In this document: positions 17,179 through 24,765 of the stretch, in pieces
Numbering within the stretch: the first letter of the stretch is position 1
Layout: every line of letters begins with the position of its first letter
From: an uncultured Verrucomicrobiae bacterium
GTDB lineage: Bacteria > Verrucomicrobiota > Verrucomicrobiia > Chthoniobacterales > JAFAMB01
Length of the DNA stretch: 64,000 nt
Reading direction: 5' to 3'
NCBI GenBank assembly: GCA_963813025.1
Contig: CAWEXO010000011.1
Location: 736,001 to 800,000, forward strand
Translations under genes and position numbers: made by a program
Notes under the pieces: model-generated
What the model saw: the letters and a program-made list of their open reading frames with translations, nothing else
Databases searched by the model: none
What the model was told of the DNA's origin: nothing

Positions 17179-18416
17179 ATGTTCAAAACATTTTTTGCTG
17201 GCGCTATGATCAACAACATTCAGGTACCCGGGTTTCTCACCGCGACAATTGCCATCATTGTGTTTTTCGTGGGTGTCGGCCTCAATCACGCGATCGCGCC
17301 GCTCCGGCGCTGGAACATTCCGGAAGCGGTGACCGGCGGCCTGCTTGCGGCGATCGTGACCCTGATCGCATACCGGTTTTTGGGTGTAGCGATTACGTTC
17401 GATCTTGGTGCCCGTGATTTGCTGTTACTCTATTTCTTTACCGGCATCGGCCTCAACGCTCGAGCTCAGCGATCTCCTTACCGGAGGACGTCCCTTTCTC
17501 GTTCTGCTGACCCTCACGGTCGTCTTCCTGATACTGCAGAACCTGATCGCAGCCGGCAGTGTTGCCGCGCTCGGTCTTCCGAAAGGGATCACTGTGCTAC
17601 TGGGTTCTGCCTCGTTGATTGGCGGACACGGCACCACCATCGCTTGGGCGCCCCTCATCCAGCAACGTTTCGGATTGGTGAACGCCATGGAGGTCGGGGT
17701 AGCCGCGGCGACGCTTGGGTTGGTAATCGCCAGCGTCGTAGGCGGGCCGGTCGCGGGGTTTCTGATCTTACGTCATGGGCTCAGAGGACCGATCGACGAG
17801 TCGCCGGTGGTCGGACTGCCGGACGTTCCCGATGCACCAGGGAATGACGACCTGAACCATATCAGCCTCCTGCGGACATTTCTGGTTCTCAACGTGGCGA
17901 TACTCCTTGGTTTCGTCGTCGATGAAGTTGTGGCGCAGCACTGGTATAAAGCTGCCTCTCTTCGTCGCTTGCATGATCGTGGCGATTATCCTCACCAATA
18001 CCATTCCGCGCTTGTTACCGCGTCTGCGCTGGCCTTCACGGAGCCCGGATCTGGCGCTCATCTCCGATCTTTCCCTGAACATTTTCCTGGCCATGTCGTT
18101 GATGAGCCTGCAGCTGTGGACGCTTGGTGGACTTGGCCCAGCGCTTGTGGTGGTCCTGGCCATCCAGACGGTAGCCACGGTCGCCTACATTGTGTTTGTC
18201 GTTTTCCCGGCAATGGGTCGCGATTACCTGGCAGCGGTGATTGCCGCCGGGTTCAGCGGCATCAGCCTCGGCGCGACACCGACCGCCATCGCCAACATGA
18301 CGGCGGTCAAGAAGGTCTATGGCGCGGCTCCGACAGCGTTCATCATCCTTCCCCTGGTGTCCGCCTTCTTCATCGACCTCGTCAATGCCTTGGTCATCGG
18401 CTTCTTCGTGCGCTGA
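17179..18416 (+). CDS. gltS: Sodium/glutamate symporter (two apparent frameshifts)
   Basis: NIPEAVTGG, GGHGT, AAATLGL and GATPTAIANM motifs over three ORFs. Confidence 0.85.
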
Positions 18417-18424
18417 CCGATGAA

Positions 18425-18586
18425 CGTCTTGGAGTGCGCGCGAACTTGTCGCCGCTTTAGGACCGCGCGGAGCGCGGCTTAGGCCGAGGACGGAACAGCA
18501 AAGCGCCGGTTTCGGGCGAGAAGAGCCCCATACCCGCGCTCCGCGCAGATCTCAAAGCGGCGACAAGTCGCGCGCACTCCAAGACG
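18425..18586. repeat. Long inverted-repeat REP/MITE-like element between convergent genes
   Basis: CGTCTTGGAGTGCGCGCGAACTTGTCGCCGCTTT ... AAAGCGGCGACAAGTCGCGCGCACTCCAAGACG, near-perfect arms of about 33 bp. Confidence 0.85.
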
Positions 18587-18587
18587 C

Positions 18588-19739
18588 TCATCGGCCATTG
18601 GTCATCACCGTGGGCCGTATTCGCAGCATTGTCCGGCCGTAAGATTCCGCGCAAGCGAAGACCGCTTTATACACTTCGCAATAAGGGTCCTTGGCCATCA
18701 TCGTTCCAAGGGCACTGTAGGTTCGCACCGGGCAGCCGCCATGGCAGATCGAAAGATAGCGGCAGGAGAGGCAGTCTTCGTCTTGCACCAAGCGCTTCGG
18801 CCGTTCCACGAAATCTTGCCGCGCCCGGCTCGTTTTCAGCATGCGAGTGAGATCGGGTTCTTGAAAAACGTTGCCGAAAAAATATTCCGGATAGCTGGTA
18901 ACCCAGCAGTCGCACTGGGCAACTGTGCCTTTGGAGTCCACGGAAATAAATTGGTTGGAGCAGTTCTCCTTCCAGATGCAGGGAAGACGCGCCTCTTTAC
19001 CGGTGAAATGATTCATCAACCCGTCAAACGGGCCCGAGGGAAACGCCCTTCCCGTAGCCTCGCGCTATCCAGATATCGAAGAGCCCGACTAAAAAGGCGG
19101 CCAACTCGAGCATATCGAGCTTGAAATCGTCCTCGATTTGTTTTGCCGGACCACCGGGAAACGGGGTATTGACCTGGAAATCCGTCAGACCGAGTTCCTC
19201 GGTGTAATAACGGTAAAATTTTTCCGGACCTGCCTTCAGAGTGGCTTGGTGAAGCACGGCGATCACCCCGATCTCGATCCCGGCCGCTTTGGCCTCATGC
19301 AGCCTTTGTGTCCAGAGCTTGGTGTAGGCCTCCGCGCCGCCTCGGAAAAGCTTGCGATGAACATTGGGATAATCCATCGATGTTCCGAGTGAGCCGTTAA
19401 ACATCCCGTGGATCACGTCATTCCACGCGGGCGAGTAACTGATCAGATTCGTTTGCAGATAGTGAGAAAAGCGCCGTCCTCGCTTCGCGGCGGCGGAGTC
19501 CATAACCTCTCCCGCATGCGCGAACCAGTCGGGTCCCATGATCATCGCCTCGCCGCCCTGCCAGTAAATTTCGCACTCCTCGATGCGCTCTTTCTCCAAA
19601 TGGTCCAGCAAGCGCTTAGTCAACAGAGGGAACAGGCGGGTGACAGACGATGCGGCTCTTTGTGCTCAAAGCAGTAATCGCAAGCGACGTTGCATTCCGA
19701 CGTCGGAAGAAGAATGACGCTGAAAACTCGACCACTCAC
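18588..19739 (-). CDS. Radical SAM/SPASM-domain enzyme, putative peptide maturase (about two frameshifts)
   Basis: Manual translation from GTG 19739: MSGRVFSVILLPTSECNVACDYCFEH (CxxxCxxC). Then YWQGGEA, LQTNL and the SPASM region CIWKENC...AQCDC...CLSCRYLSICHGGC...DPYC. Confidence 0.9.
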
Positions 19740-20635
19740 TGTGTATTTTGCCCCGCCCAGGTCGGGTTAGCTGGTTTGTCGAGGCGCAACCGGCCAGGTC
19801 TTCGACCGATCTCGTTTGCCGCCGCTTGAATGTCGGAAAAGAGCTCTTTTACTCCTTCACAGGAGTAAGCTGGATCCGGCCATTTGAAATAGCCGCGGCA
19901 TGGCTGTTGCCAGGGACAGGCCGCGCATTCAGCGTCCCTGTGCAAGGAGGCTGCTCAAGATGACTCTCGACAAATTCCGCGGGAGCGCCTCCGATTGGTC
20001 CGAACCGAGCCGGAGCGGGGCAACTTGGCCTGTCCATCGATATCGTACTGGAGAAAGAACGGCTGGATCTTCCTCGAGGATCATCCAGAGCGAGCCGGCG
20101 TCAGCGCCACGTAGGCGGTCGCGAGCAGCGAGTGGAAGAACTCCACCGGCGCCTCGACCGCCGGTTCATAAAGATAGAAGTCAGAGCTTCTTTGAGTTCG
20201 GTTAGGGTCGTCGGCGTATGGTTGACCCGGCAATATCCTCGGACTGGAAACCGCAAGGCTCCAGCGAGTTTGACCGCCTTGAGCAAACCGCGTCCAGCCG
20301 GGATGGTCACGCGGACGTCGTGGACTGCGCAGGCATCAACCAATCGGTAGAGGTCCGAAAACTCCGAAGCCGGGTCGGCCAGAACGATGTCAATGGAACG
20401 TCGGAGTCGCTGTGCGCCACCTCCGTCCAGGCATCCGAATCGCCCGACATCCCTTCGACCTGGAGCCACTCCAAACCGGGGAGCGGATCGCCGAGCCATC
20501 GGCAGAGTTCCTCTCGATTCCGGACAATGGCGACGAAGGGCAGATCACCTTGCGTTCTCCGCCAGAGCAGACGGCAAGATCTGAGAGGACGATGATGATC
20601 TTCCTCGGGCACGCAAATTCCAGAGGCTCACTCAC
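19736..20635 (-). CDS. Hypothetical maturase partner with a degenerate SPASM-like tail (multiple frameshifts)
   Basis: Stitched frames give DLPFVAIVRNREELCRWL...DIVLADPASEFSDLYRL...PVEFFHSLL...LWMILEEDPA...CAACPWQQPCRGYF...YSCEG. GTGA overlaps at both ends; no CxxxCxxC seen. Confidence 0.6.
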
Positions 20636-20926
20636 CACCGATTGAGCCAGCTGCCCGCGACGTCGGCCACCCCAGCGGTTGATCCACCTACCCCGACGCC
20701 GAGGACCCCAGCGGTTGATCCATCCGCCGCGGCGAGGACCCCAGCGGTTGATCCAAACTCTGCGCATTGGCCTTCGGCGCGGAGGCAAGCCAAGCACGCC
20801 AGCCAGCCCGATCGCCGCAATCGCGGCCCCAGACCATTTTCCCATGCTCCGGAGAAATAGCCGCCTGTTCAGCGACTCTTTTTCGCTGTCGGAGCCTTCC
20901 GTTTCAGAAGAGGGTTGATTATTCAT
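20632..20926 (-). CDS. Putative RiPP precursor with a Tat-like leader and four W[IL]NRW repeats
   Basis: LNRRLFLRSMGKWSGAAIAAIGLAG, then WINRWGPRRGG-WINRWGPRRRGR-WINRWGGRRR and, after a 1-nt shift, GSWLNRW-stop. Confidence 0.75.
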
Positions 20927-20946
20927 AACATTAAAGGGCGAGGTTC

Positions 20947-21454
20947 TTATTCTTCATCTTCAGTTCGGCGCCAGAATCGAAAAGTGCATGGCGGCGATAA
21001 GCCACTTTCCATTCTCTTTCGTGGCCGTAACCGACAGATTGAGCGGGAAGGTGAAATCTGTTTCCGTCCTTCTTTCCACTGACGTTGCCTGACGTCATCA
21101 TCCAACCCATGTCCGATCGCGAGTGCGCCGACGCTCGAACTCGTATTCGAAATTTTGTTCTCCAACGTCGAAGCCTTCAAAGAGATGTTCGATGGGCCGC
21201 TTTGAGTTCATCCGGACCCGACCAGATTTCCCCGGGACCGGTGCCCATCATGGCCGCTTTCTGGGAAAGGACAGCCATCACTCCATCCAGGTCGTGGTTT
21301 GTAAAAGCCGCGTCGTGCGCGTCGAGCAGAGCGCGAAGCGGCGCTAACTCGGGATTCTCCGGTTCTGCGTAGGCGTCTGCGCACTCGCAGCGCGAAGGGA
21401 CTGCGGCGGCGCGCTGCTTGCTGCGGCCACTGTAGTAGCTGCTGTTCGGTTCAT
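20947..21454 (-). CDS. NTF2/SnoaL-like protein (frameshifted; ends approximate)
   Basis: LRALLDAHDAAFTNHDLDGVMA...MMGTGPGEIWSG and, in another frame, TATKENGKWLIAAMHFS. Confidence 0.65.
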
Positions 21455-21644
21455 AAGCATTGTACACTTGTAAGCGAAGGTAATCGCTCAACAAGAGCAA
21501 ACTGAGTTCTCGCGAGGTTCTGTTTTGAGCGGCCGTTCGCTCCCGGAGGTCATTTGAGAGGGCTGGATACTGGAATTGCCTCGCAATGGCGTCAAGGGCG
21601 CTTGCGGTGTCTGAATCGCGGCTAAGGACGTCGAGAATCTTATT

Positions 21645-22552
21645 TTAAGCGAATTTCCGTCCAGTGAGTTGCTCTAATACTCGCAGCGGCGAGCTCGTCT
21701 CATTGCGCAATTGTGCGACCGGAACAAGAAAGGTTTGTTCTAGCTGATACTGGCCGCGCATCGCGGCATGCGAAACCTGGTCAGTAAAGGCAAGCCAGGT
21801 GGAGCCAGCCGGAAAGTCCAGCTCGAATCTGTTCTACCTCGGTCTGGTAGCGATCATCCATCTTCATCCGGTTATGAAGTTCGAGCATGAGATGGTCATA
21901 TGAGTGTCCGCCGGCTTTTCGTGACGTGAAGGAGCCTCAGCATACTGCTGCTTCCAAAAACCGGCCGCCTGATCGAAGAAAAAAAACGCGCAGCCATCTG
22001 TTCGAAAGGTTCGCCAACCCGCCAAACGCGTCCTCGGCCAGAGGGATTGACGTTCGTAAAGACTCGTAAAATTCGTTTTCCGTGGGTGGGTGCGGATGGG
22101 AAACTATCGACATGCAAGCGGGTGTCATCCTTTCGCCACGACGTGGCGCGACCCTCAATCTGGATCGGACGGAAACTCGTCCGTGCCCGGATCAATCCAC
22201 TTTCATAGGGAGAAGCCAAGCGCAGGACGAGATCGCGGGCGAAATCGGCAAAACGCGCAATCATCTTGCGAAGAAGTTCGGCATTCGGCGCCGAGGCGGC
22301 TGTCCCGCGGAGCGTCCGACTGCGCGGATCGTAGCTCACGTTCTTGGCCTTGCCGACGATCGCCGGAGAGAAGAGGGCGCTTTCTTCATCCGTCACGGCA
22401 AATCGGTACTGCGGGAGAAAGAGGATCTTCCCGCTCTCTAAAGCGCTGATCGCGCGGTCGACCAGACCAGCAGGAGCAGACGAATCTTGCGGCTCAATTT
22501 CGATGAGCTCAAGAGGGCTCATGCTCAGCCTCGCGGAATCCGTCGCCTTCAT
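21645..22552 (-). CDS. kdoO: Kdo hydroxylase family dioxygenase (frameshifted near the 3' third)
   Basis: SWRKDDTRLHVDSFPS...RILRVFTNVNP; continues in other frames as YDHLMLELH...FTDQVSHAAMRGQYQLEQTF to TAA at 21645. Confidence 0.8.
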
Positions 22553-23691: not shown

Positions 23692-24177
23692 GTGAAACAG
23701 AACGCACGCTTTGTTCGGATCGCCCTCCCGCTCAAGTTGATCGCTTTGGCTTGTGGATTGTCAGCCTGCGCCGGCACCGGACGAGTGGACGAACGCGACC
23801 GCGCAATCGACACTTACGTAGTAGATGCAAACGTCACGGGTCTTGCCGAAGCGCGTGCTCGCCGCTACTGGATGGAAAATTCGAACAGGTTTCCGCCAAC
23901 GCCCTACCTTGCGGTTGATGCGACTTTAGTGTTCCCCAGCGAAGTCCAGAATTTGTGGCCTAAGCTCATCAACTCAGAAACTACGGCCAGTTTTTTTGGT
24001 CATGGGCTGGAGTCCGGCTCCTACTCAGAGCTGCAACTTTATTGCGTGCTGATCTTTGATACTCGAACCAGACAGCTAGTAGGTAACCGGGGCTACCTCG
24101 TCGTCGACCTGCCTTCACGCGGAAGCGTGGCTCGGTTTGGTCCTTACCTAGCCAGATATATTAGTGCGGGCAGGTAA
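23692..24177 (+). CDS. Hypothetical lipoprotein, paralog 1
   Basis: LSAC lipobox; strong similarity to the next ORF. Confidence 0.75.
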   Translation: MKQNARFVRIALPLKLIALACGLSACAGTGRVDERDRAIDTYVVDANVTGLAEARARRYWMENSNRFPPTPYLAVDATLVFPSEVQNLWPKLINSETTASFFGHGLESGSYSELQLYCVLIFDTRTRQLVGNRGYLVVDLPSRGSVARFGPYLARYISAGR

Positions 24178-24267: not shown

Positions 24268-24765
24268 GTGAATGTGAATTTTTTCAGGGTCATTTTGTTC
24301 CATCGAGCATGGCCAATTGTTGTGATGGCAACGATGGCCGCCTGTGCGGAACACGCTTACTCGCGAATCGACAACCGCGACTACGCGATCGACACCTATA
24401 TCCCGAAGCCGAACGTGGTGGCTGTCAGCGAAGCACGCGTCCGCCAATTTTGGGCGCGCAACGCGGCCAGATTCGGAGGGCAGCCTCCGTACCTGGCGGT
24501 TGACGCAACGTATGTTTTTCCGAGTGAAATCGTCCAGGATCTGTGGCCAAAGCTGATCAACTCCGAAACGACCAGCAGCTTTTTTGGGCATGGCCGGGAA
24601 CAGGGATCCTATCAAGGCCTGGATATGTATTGCGTAATGATCTTCGATACGCGAACCAACCGCTTTGTTAGTGATCAGGGTTTCGTTGCGGTCAATTTAC
24701 CGACTCGAGGAACCATCGCGAGATTTGGCCCTTATTTAGCCCGGTTCATCGGTACCGGACGGTGA
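24268..24765 (+). CDS. Hypothetical lipoprotein, paralog 2
   Basis: MAAC lipobox; shares AIDTY, YLAVDAT, LWPKLINSETT, FDTRT and ARFGPYLAR with paralog 1. Confidence 0.75.
   Translation: MNVNFFRVILFHRAWPIVVMATMAACAEHAYSRIDNRDYAIDTYIPKPNVVAVSEARVRQFWARNAARFGGQPPYLAVDATYVFPSEIVQDLWPKLINSETTSSFFGHGREQGSYQGLDMYCVMIFDTRTNRFVSDQGFVAVNLPTRGTIARFGPYLARFIGTGR

Follow-up and report, generated by a model that had tools for sequence, protein, structure and literature searches.

Radical S-adenosylmethionine (rSAM)/SPASM maturases are generally regarded as catalysts that consist of one protein, at times aided by a small RRE protein (an element that recognizes RiPPs, peptides made on ribosomes and modified after translation). 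Here we analyze a four-gene cassette in a 64,000-nucleotide stretch of DNA from an uncultured Verrucomicrobiae bacterium (assembly GCA_963813025.1, contig CAWEXO010000011.1, positions 736,001 to 800,000 of the forward strand; this whole stretch is called the window), in which the gene of an rSAM/SPASM enzyme directly follows that of a protein we call the partner. The partner looks like an obligate second subunit, a degenerate copy of the enzyme that keeps only the site of the outer auxiliary cluster. We consider it likely that it is the non-catalytic subunit of a two-subunit radical-SAM peptide maturase, probably carrying one cluster and of the cyclophane type.

Paired or degenerate rSAM proteins are, as a general idea, already known. 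The NCBIfam families TIGR04347 (pseudo-SAM/SPASM), TIGR04304 (GeoRSP SPASM-domain protein) and TIGR04419 (PsgB) hold what we take to be degenerate rSAM/SPASM-type proteins encoded with a true rSAM. The partner falls in none of them: its intact ortholog from the same genus, P0001, has no match to these families at E≤1, and none of 104 diverse members of the partner family matches at E≤0.01.

Two described systems can be compared. In the thuricin CD pathway, TrnC and TrnD form a complex that strictly requires radical chemistry from just one of them (PMC12093266). TrnC/TrnD and partner/rSAM are alike in being two rSAM-fold proteins encoded side by side, but TrnD is still an active rSAM with clusters, whereas the partner lacks the radical-SAM cluster and auxiliary cluster I (Aux I) altogether. 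For PapB, intermolecular electron transfer is needed to reset the enzyme after the oxidative cross-link, likely via the second auxiliary cluster (PMC10470005). Both are precedents that fit the reading of the partner as a one-cluster subunit. The structural reference for the clusters is anSMEcpe, in which Aux I is held by C255, C261, C276 and C330, and Aux II, held by C317, C320, C326 and C348, is proposed to lead electrons to the surface (PMC5715301).

On the side of the substrate, the nearest relatives are triceptides, which are defined by an aromatic-X-X motif (PMC12912966). Triceptide/3-CyFE and GRRM (Gly-rich repeat) systems resemble the cassette in having aromatic-X-X repeats, Gly-rich or Arg-rich, beside an rSAM/SPASM enzyme; they differ in that the rSAM of the cassette scores far under their family cut-offs and its precursor matches no NCBIfam model. 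A pseudo-rSAM partner, a leader of the twin-arginine translocation (Tat) type and a SnoaL-like gene were not found for triceptide or GRRM systems in the literature searched, where papers retrieved for GrrM/GrrA were all unrelated. No paper on the partner family or the cassette was found either, in a search that left most subscription-journal papers uncovered, including the main triceptide surveys, so that this absence is weak evidence. Two things are new with respect to the searchable papers: a pseudo-rSAM subunit that keeps Aux II only, for which there is also no Pfam or NCBIfam model, and a family-wide tie of such a protein to a W-x-N repeat peptide with a Tat leader and to a SnoaL-like protein.

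Cysteine signature and predicted fold of the partner

In the alignment of 104 homologs (P0001 numbering; identity to P0001 down to 23%), residues W182, C234, C237 and C243 are invariant, and conservation reaches 90% or more at C256, G245, F247, K248, P250 and some further positions. There is no conserved Cys before residue 234, and the CxxxCxxC motif is absent both from the window copy and from the homologs. Three motifs recur throughout the family: P[VI]EFFHS, LWxIxEEDP and ECxxCx5CxGYFKWPDxxYxC. Four residues after C243, where the fourth SPASM Cys would stand, the partner has F247. In the window, the Cys-bearing tail is read from the last partner piece, the open reading frame (ORF) 19736..19945 on the minus strand, which contains HRDAECAACPWQQPCRGYFKWPDPAYSCEGVKELFSDIQAAANEI, also written AECAACPWQQPCRGYFKWPDPAYSCEGVKELF; the rSAM ORF piece 18588..19019 contains DEDCLSCRYLSICHGGC...KDPYCEVYKAVF. 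An earlier note on this DNA, made from the letters alone, had quoted the partner piece exactly and had recognized in the partner a SPASM-type tail parallel to that of the enzyme, with CxxCx5C and the distal Cys kept, the fourth Cys missing and no N-terminal CxxxCxxC, and the homologs bear out each part of that description.

The parallel with the enzyme goes beyond chance in an hhalign comparison of the profiles of the partner family and of 16 cognate rSAMs (E 5.9e-5, probability 65%, 162 columns), which joins partner residues 95-274 to rSAM residues 183-380. The cognate rSAM keeps every expected Cys (C24, C28, C31, C262, C268, C284, C286, C331, C334, C340, C344 and C362), and the spacing of its CX2CX5CX3C...C motif is that of anSMEcpe. 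In the alignment, C234/C237/C243/C256 pair with rSAM C331/C334/C340/C362, while no Cys of the partner corresponds to C344, which is the fourth Cys of CX2CX5CX3C. The CIWKENC segment of the Aux I region pairs with LWxIxEEDP, so that the Trp is kept and both Cys are lost, and GPFD pairs with PVEFFHS. Because the four Cys pair with those of Aux II in the rSAM, with the spacing of anSMEcpe, the partner retains the complete set of Aux II ligands and no other ligands. Canonical SAM cleavage is beyond it, and the retained ligands suggest that it probably binds one [4Fe-4S] cluster at the Aux II-type site.

A different metal, or none, is unlikely. The four-Cys tail would then be a structural zinc site or metal-free, and the partner a scaffold or a folding/assembly chaperone without a redox role; the shorter loop of the partner (12 residues C243-C256 vs 21 C340-C362 in the rSAM), the location of its Cys region outside the predicted interface with the rSAM, and the complete cluster set of the rSAM itself are all consistent with such a role. 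However, the CX2CX5C spacing and the alignment with the Aux II ligands are exact across 104 diverse sequences, and the neighboring GYFKWPD is conserved as tightly.

The predicted structure points to the same origin as the Cys signature. An AlphaFold2 model of the partner, built on the 104-sequence alignment (pLDDT 94.9, pTM 0.91), shows alternating strands and helices to residue ~165, then a hairpin and a helical Cys-bearing tail; both the model and its structural matches display the partial (beta/alpha)6 TIM-barrel core of the Radical SAM fold. A Foldseek search against the PDB placed ChlB first (9gm3/9gmc, E 5.7e-6 to 3.6e-5), with anSMEcpe at ~1e-3 among generic barrels, and gave a probability of 1.00 for both. 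VIA-align Z scores were 13.7 for ChlB (258 residues aligned), 12.2 for anSMEcpe (249 residues), 11.3 for TigE and 10.4 for CteB, compared with 8.6 for PqqE, 8.4 for SuiB, 8.1 for SkfB, 7.6 for MoaA and 6-8.7 for unrelated TIM barrels. The top four are well separated from all the others and cover model residues 8-283; thus the partner is predicted to have the fold of an rSAM/SPASM maturase, shortened by ~100 residues. Like ChlB (9gm3) and anSMEcpe (4k36), it has a partial (beta/alpha) barrel and, C-terminal to this, a SPASM-like region that bears Cys in the CX2CX5C...C arrangement of Aux II ligands; unlike them, it has no CxxxCxxC and no Aux I Cys, is ~100 residues shorter and matches neither the Pfam Radical_SAM nor the SPASM model. 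Together, the predicted fold and the profile similarity indicate that the partner arose from an rSAM/SPASM enzyme belonging to the clade of its downstream neighbor.

Family models do not recognize this origin. Pfam and NCBIfam searches with the window's own ORF pieces gave no match for the partner, and its homologs P0001 and P0002 belong to no Pfam or NCBIfam family (P0001: no NCBIfam family at E≤1; P0002: a single sub-threshold match to TIGR04085, SPASM, with E 0.087 and 13.3 bits vs a cut-off of 27). Neither the SPASM nor the Radical_SAM (PF04055) model matches any of the 104 diverse members at E≤0.01, and the sole Pfam/NCBIfam matches among them are four at chance level, each in a single member. 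Searched against PDB sequences, the partner profile matched no rSAM at E≤10; its only matches were weak and barrel-like (best E 0.033). By Cys content and model the partner is therefore outside both the Radical SAM superfamily (PF04055), its sole conserved Cys being C234, C237, C243 and C256, and the SPASM domain (PF13186/TIGR04085), of which it has only the four Aux II-type Cys. It is not a Twitch domain either. Twitch, a truncated SPASM, is defined by a single cluster at the Aux I-equivalent site, nearest the active site, and by absence of the CX2CX5CX3C motif (PMC5715301). The partner is the reverse: it retains CX2CX5C and the distal Cys, hence the Aux II site, and has no Cys at the positions aligned to rSAM C262 and C268, hence no Aux I. 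A role like that of an RRE (PqqD-like) protein is rejected because the fold is unrelated, a barrel with a SPASM-like tail, and no Pfam match to an RRE was found in the 104 members.

Gene context, distribution and precursor

The four genes of the cassette are co-directional on the minus strand of the window, from ~21500 to 18588, and are listed here in the order of transcription.

~20948..21500, minus strand: SnoaL-like (PF13474/DUF4440) protein, the first gene of the cassette, with a signal-like N-terminal segment; frameshifted here
20632..20926, minus strand: precursor peptide, with a twin-arginine-signal-like leader and repeated WINRWGPRR(G/R)G units
19736..20612, minus strand: partner gene, putative degenerate paralog of rSAM/SPASM fold, ~285 aa, with only four Aux II-type Cys kept
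18588..19739, minus strand: catalytic rSAM/SPASM enzyme, with CNVACDYC (CxxxCxxC) and the full SPASM Cys set

The limits of the SnoaL-like gene are approximate and come from alignment to a same-genus locus, L002. The partner has its likely GTG start at 20612 and its stop at 19736-19738, and the TGA of this stop overlaps the GTG start of the rSAM as GTGA, an overlap also present in L002. The rSAM lies in three frame pieces in the window (19620-19739, 19024-19623 and 18588-19019). The precursor leader contains NRRLFLRSMGKWSGAAIAAIGLAG, and the precursor gene stops at 20632-20634. There is only one copy of the partner in the window's genome.

Intact partner homologs are readily found. All nine of the relatives' loci that were fetched carry one, 277-293 aa from a plausible start, in the same order of precursor, partner and rSAM/SPASM, and the longest window piece has matches in 13 of 41 related genomes, with open frames of 283-371 aa. 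A word-indexed protein search gave 780 partner-family proteins at 90% clustering (the 120 listed are all named 'hypothetical protein' at the source), and an exhaustive profile search gave 382 representatives at 50% clustering with E≤1e-3, 146 of them with E≤1e-30. A protein atlas holds unnamed partner-family clusters from Verrucomicrobiota and Pseudomonadota, one cluster auto-named 'Radical SAM domain protein family' and another in which 17% of the members carry SPASM.

Species-representative genomes, scanned with the 9-sequence partner alignment as seed, yielded 39 loci, mostly in Verrucomicrobiota: Chthoniobacterales, Candidatus Udaeobacter, Terrimicrobiaceae, Chthoniobacter flavus Ellin428 and Verrucomicrobium sp. 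BvORR034. Two are in Vulcanimicrobiota metagenome-assembled genomes (MAGs) and one in a MAG labelled Dormiibacterota. In the cultured C. flavus Ellin428 (locus L038) the cassette is intact, with all four genes open. A metagenome scan was seeded with a distant subfamily (30-42% identical among themselves), and 80 of its 318 confirmed loci were kept.

The context of the partner is constant when scored with hidden Markov models (HMMs) built for this analysis. By script, 34 of the 37 genome loci with room have an rSAM of this clade as the next gene downstream, and the count is 36/37 when L038 and L039, missed only by a position filter, are added by eye; the remaining locus, L049, has no such rSAM. 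Among metagenome loci with room the figure is 64/68 by HMM scoring; a cruder count with regular expressions gave 54/70 metagenome loci. Upstream, 32/37 genome and 53/57 metagenome loci have a precursor that combines an RRxFL leader with two or more WxN units; by W-[IVLA]-N alone it is present in 37 of the 39 genome loci, with 3-7 units per precursor. A SnoaL-like gene lies upstream in 33/34 genome and 40/43 metagenome loci (those with at least 1200 bp of room). This gene, seen for example at L002:412-948 and L038:2991-3605, encodes a SnoaL_3/DUF4440 protein with a signal-like N-terminus and stands just upstream of the precursor. At L039:3707-5953, in a long-read MAG, partner and rSAM share one 749-codon open frame, which could be a real fusion or an indel artefact.

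The precursor leader has the form RRxFLxx(M/L)GKWS followed by a hydrophobic stretch and AxA, in the window and at L002:970-1260, L003:1954-2280 and the upstream ORFs of L050-L129. The core consists of repeated GW[IVLA]NR(R/W)G units and ends in NRW, NRR, NRF or NWW. Even in the distant subfamily GKWS is kept after RRxFL: its precursors have leaders like SRRDFLxGLGKWSxxVIGG...AxA, then repeats of the GW[IVLA]NRRGGGG type. Among NCBIfam models, the one for formate-dehydrogenase TAT targets also matches the precursor, though weakly (E 0.016). The Tat-like leader and this match suggest that the modified precursor is exported by Tat; the leader and the SnoaL-like, apparently secreted protein suggest in turn that the product of the cassette is periplasmic or extracellular, made by widespread and mostly uncultured soil bacteria.

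The rSAM itself begins directly at CxxxCxxC, without an RRE, and all of its NCBIfam scores are below cut-off: 138 bits for anSME (cut-off 349), 135 for DynA (450), 124 for DarW (650) and 73.8 for GrrM/OscB (TIGR04261; 310). It has further sub-threshold similarity to DarE and is far below the cut-offs of XyeB, FxsB, YhhB and AmcB. DynA-type enzymes link Trp to Asn, a point of general background that carries no weight here. The cyanobacterial GRRM system was considered and set aside: the rSAM is under the TIGR04261 cut-off, and the precursor has no TIGR04260 match at E≤1. Like triceptide systems, the cassette has an aromatic-X-X (W-[IVLA]-N) precursor adjoining an rSAM/SPASM maturase. From this motif and the sub-threshold family similarity, the W-x-N units would be cross-linked, most likely as three-residue cyclophanes, in which a C-C bond joins the aromatic ring to residue 3 (-2 Da per motif).

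The partner and rSAM as a probable two-subunit maturase

Modeling of the partner-rSAM complex gave ipSAE values of 0.75, 0.77 and 0.78 (median 0.77), compared with 0.00 for the best of three controls. A value of 0.77 is reached by 116 of 157 solved complexes and by 2 of 215 mismatched pairs, counts that hold only roughly here because custom alignments were used. The alignments were unpaired. At least 74% of contacts are common to the runs, and the pLDDT of the partner is at least 83. The partner is predicted to contact the rSAM through helices 66-76, 92-103, 119-128 and 156-158, and the rSAM to contribute residues 322-341, which flank the Aux II Cys, along with 266-270, 310, 319, 58-60, 10 and 12.

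Natural fusions also join the partner domain to Radical_SAM domains. Among six long forms, chosen by length from 150 listed representatives, four have a Pfam Radical_SAM domain above threshold, either N- or C-terminal to the partner domain: P0162 joins a HemN-like rSAM to a following partner domain, whereas in P0208, P0210 and P0265 the partner domain precedes an HxsC/MoaA-like rSAM without a full SPASM. In the other two, P0181 and P0198, the partner domain is joined to DUF483, and in P0198 also to a methyltransferase. This variety of fused proteins indicates that the partner domain may serve more than one kind of rSAM system.

Complex modeling and fusions thus support a heterodimer of partner and rSAM, as the earlier note had proposed. 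Its view of the partner as a catalytically dead paralog is also supported, given the loss of the radical-SAM and Aux I Cys and an rSAM/SPASM fold by model and profile; intact homologs do exist and do co-occur with the rSAM, and the structure prediction and Foldseek search that it had called for, together with VIA-align, returned a partial TIM barrel with a SPASM-like tail and four rSAM/SPASM maturases as best matches.

The role of the partner in such a heterodimer may be to hold the peptide, to relay electrons or both; the earlier note had offered leader binding, scaffolding or electron transfer. The partner's most conserved motifs, acidic and aromatic, lie outside the predicted interface and, by alignment, fall where the rSAM has its bridging/Aux I region. 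Arginine abounds in the precursors (RR in the leader, NRR or PRRR in the repeats). Acidic and aromatic motifs at the former Aux I site, Arg-rich precursors and an rSAM without an RRE together favor a peptide-holding, one-cluster subunit. We propose the following sequence of events. The partner would bind one [4Fe-4S] cluster at the retained Aux II-type site and dock via its outer barrel helices onto the SPASM/Aux II face of the catalytic rSAM. A pocket formed by PVEFFHS, LWxIxEEDP and GYFKWPD, in place of the lost Aux I, would hold the Arg-rich leader or core and present the repeats, and the two proteins together would cross-link the W-x-N repeats, most likely as three-residue cyclophanes of the triceptide type. 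The partner cluster may offer a path in or out, through Aux II, for the electron returned by oxidative cross-linking. After modification, the leader would direct Tat export, and the SnoaL-like secreted protein would act afterwards.

Several observations weigh against this proposal. The partner family is known from sequences and models alone. At 65%, the hhalign probability is modest, the similarity extends over no more than the C-terminal ~180 residues, and a forced global alignment of partner and rSAM gives no credible alignment of the N-terminal half, so that sequence cannot say what replaced the CxxxCxxC loop. The complex model may in part reflect memory of rSAM structures. Predicted interface residues are no more conserved than average: random subsets reach the interface mean 8627/10000 times (A2), 3901/10000 times (A1) and 2604/10000 times (rSAM, A3). 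The partner Cys motif (234-256) lies outside the residues predicted to touch the rSAM, which leaves a direct cluster-to-cluster relay unsupported. The four Cys could bind zinc, not Fe-S, and the rSAM keeps its full SPASM Cys set and thus has no obvious need for an extra cluster. The cross-link chemistry is read from the W-x-N motif and sub-threshold family similarity only, and the conserved polar motifs could mark another kind of catalytic site.

This last point leads to an alternative that we regard as distinctly improbable: that the partner is an enzyme in its own right, a TIM-barrel-like tailoring protein, equipped or not with an Fe-S or metal site, that modifies the peptide a second time and does so independently of SAM. 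The polar motifs PVEFFHS, LWxIxEEDP and ECxxC...GYFKWPD are indeed conserved family-wide and outside the predicted rSAM interface, and the two of six long forms that carry DUF483 (one with a methyltransferase) have no rSAM. But the best structural matches are rSAM/SPASM maturases and not other barrel enzymes, and in the alignment the conserved motifs fall on portions of the cognate rSAM that are structural or bind clusters. The strict gene order, the gene overlap and the fusions to rSAM domains also speak against it, as does a complex model that passes its controls.

The non-catalytic subunit that we prefer may have a further, more speculative function, to which we give a rather low probability. 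The cassette would belong to a RiPP class in which the leader is itself a Tat signal, and the partner would be a chaperone resembling those of Tat 'proofreading'. Its acidic pocket at the former Aux I site would grip the leader, RRxFLxxxGKWS, or else the NRR repeats, and keep the peptide on the rSAM as long as any W-x-N unit is still to be cross-linked, while the partner cluster would wire the Aux II of the rSAM to the outside; only after cross-linking would the peptide be released for Tat export and cleavage by signal peptidase. If true, a dead radical-SAM fold would have taken on a new job here, and RiPP maturation would be tied to protein export in a new way.

No Pfam or NCBIfam model covers the family, whose clusters at 50% identity number 382 or more. 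Should the partner be needed, heterologous expression of such gene clusters with no maturase protein but the rSAM would fail, a point that matters when genomes of soil Verrucomicrobiota are mined for cyclophane peptides. The partner is also a natural system for asking what Aux II does, since evolution appears to have isolated that site in a separate protein.

Frameshifts in the window copy and neighboring genes

The cassette in the window is broken by frameshifts. The earlier note had stitched a partner product of ~300 aa from several frames; several frames are indeed needed, with 15 indels, but the upper limit that it gave, 20635, marks where the precursor gene ends, and the true start is likely at 20612. 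Aligning the intact ortholog P0001 by tblastn requires frames -3, -2 and -1, with garbled stretches within the last. Over 2849 bases aligned to L002 (83.7% identity), we counted gap openings gene by gene: partner 15 (1-2 nt each), precursor 5, SnoaL-like gene 12, and rSAM 2 in the body plus 3 in the divergent 5' end. The precursor has indels near 20794, 20759 and 20652; the C-terminus of its ortholog is ...RWLNRW. Protein identity to the ortholog is 76.9% for the partner and 94.0% for the rSAM.

We lean toward indel errors of the assembly as the cause of the frameshifts in all four genes. Read in the ortholog's frame, none of the genes has an in-frame stop, and the third codon position takes a disproportionate share of the substitutions, 95 of the partner's 167 and 95 of the rSAM's 117. 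Most of the indels are single inserted bases, and the assembly consists of 16 contigs and is 80% complete. Outside the cassette, a sodium/glutamate symporter-like gene (named from its translation; 17179-18460, plus strand) is split as well, into 17179-17847, 17405-18460 and 17907-18416. The lack of new stops, the third-position bias, the single-base insertions, other split genes and the state of the assembly all favor this explanation.

The competing possibility, less probable but to be taken seriously, is that the whole cassette is a decaying pseudogene cluster in the window's genome: the family would be real and this copy dead. The indel counts in partner, precursor, SnoaL-like gene and rSAM body relative to the same-genus ortholog, and the single copy in the genome, are compatible with decay. 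The density of indels is uneven, ~1.8% at 19750-21500 vs ~0.2% in the rSAM body, and short-read contigs of related strains lack the window indels at 20240, 20394 and 20658; these two observations keep real decay possible. The contigs come from one soil run (6% of words), from which no habitat is deduced, with patchy cover, and of 30 aligned pieces 7 are at ≥99% and 13 at <90% identity. They belong to other strains, mostly at <95% identity, and do not decide between decay and artefact.

Two other features lie upstream of the cassette. A Kdo hydroxylase gene (PF11004, E 4.3e-63) at 21896-22552 on the minus strand covers profile positions 6-191 of 275 and is probably truncated by another frameshift; it is syntenic in L002. 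On the plus strand, 23692-24177 and 24268-24765 encode tandem paralogous small proteins of 161 and 165 aa, with lipoprotein-like or signal-like N-termini and C-termini ending ...GSVARFGPYLARYISAGR or ...GTIARFGPYLARFIGTGR.

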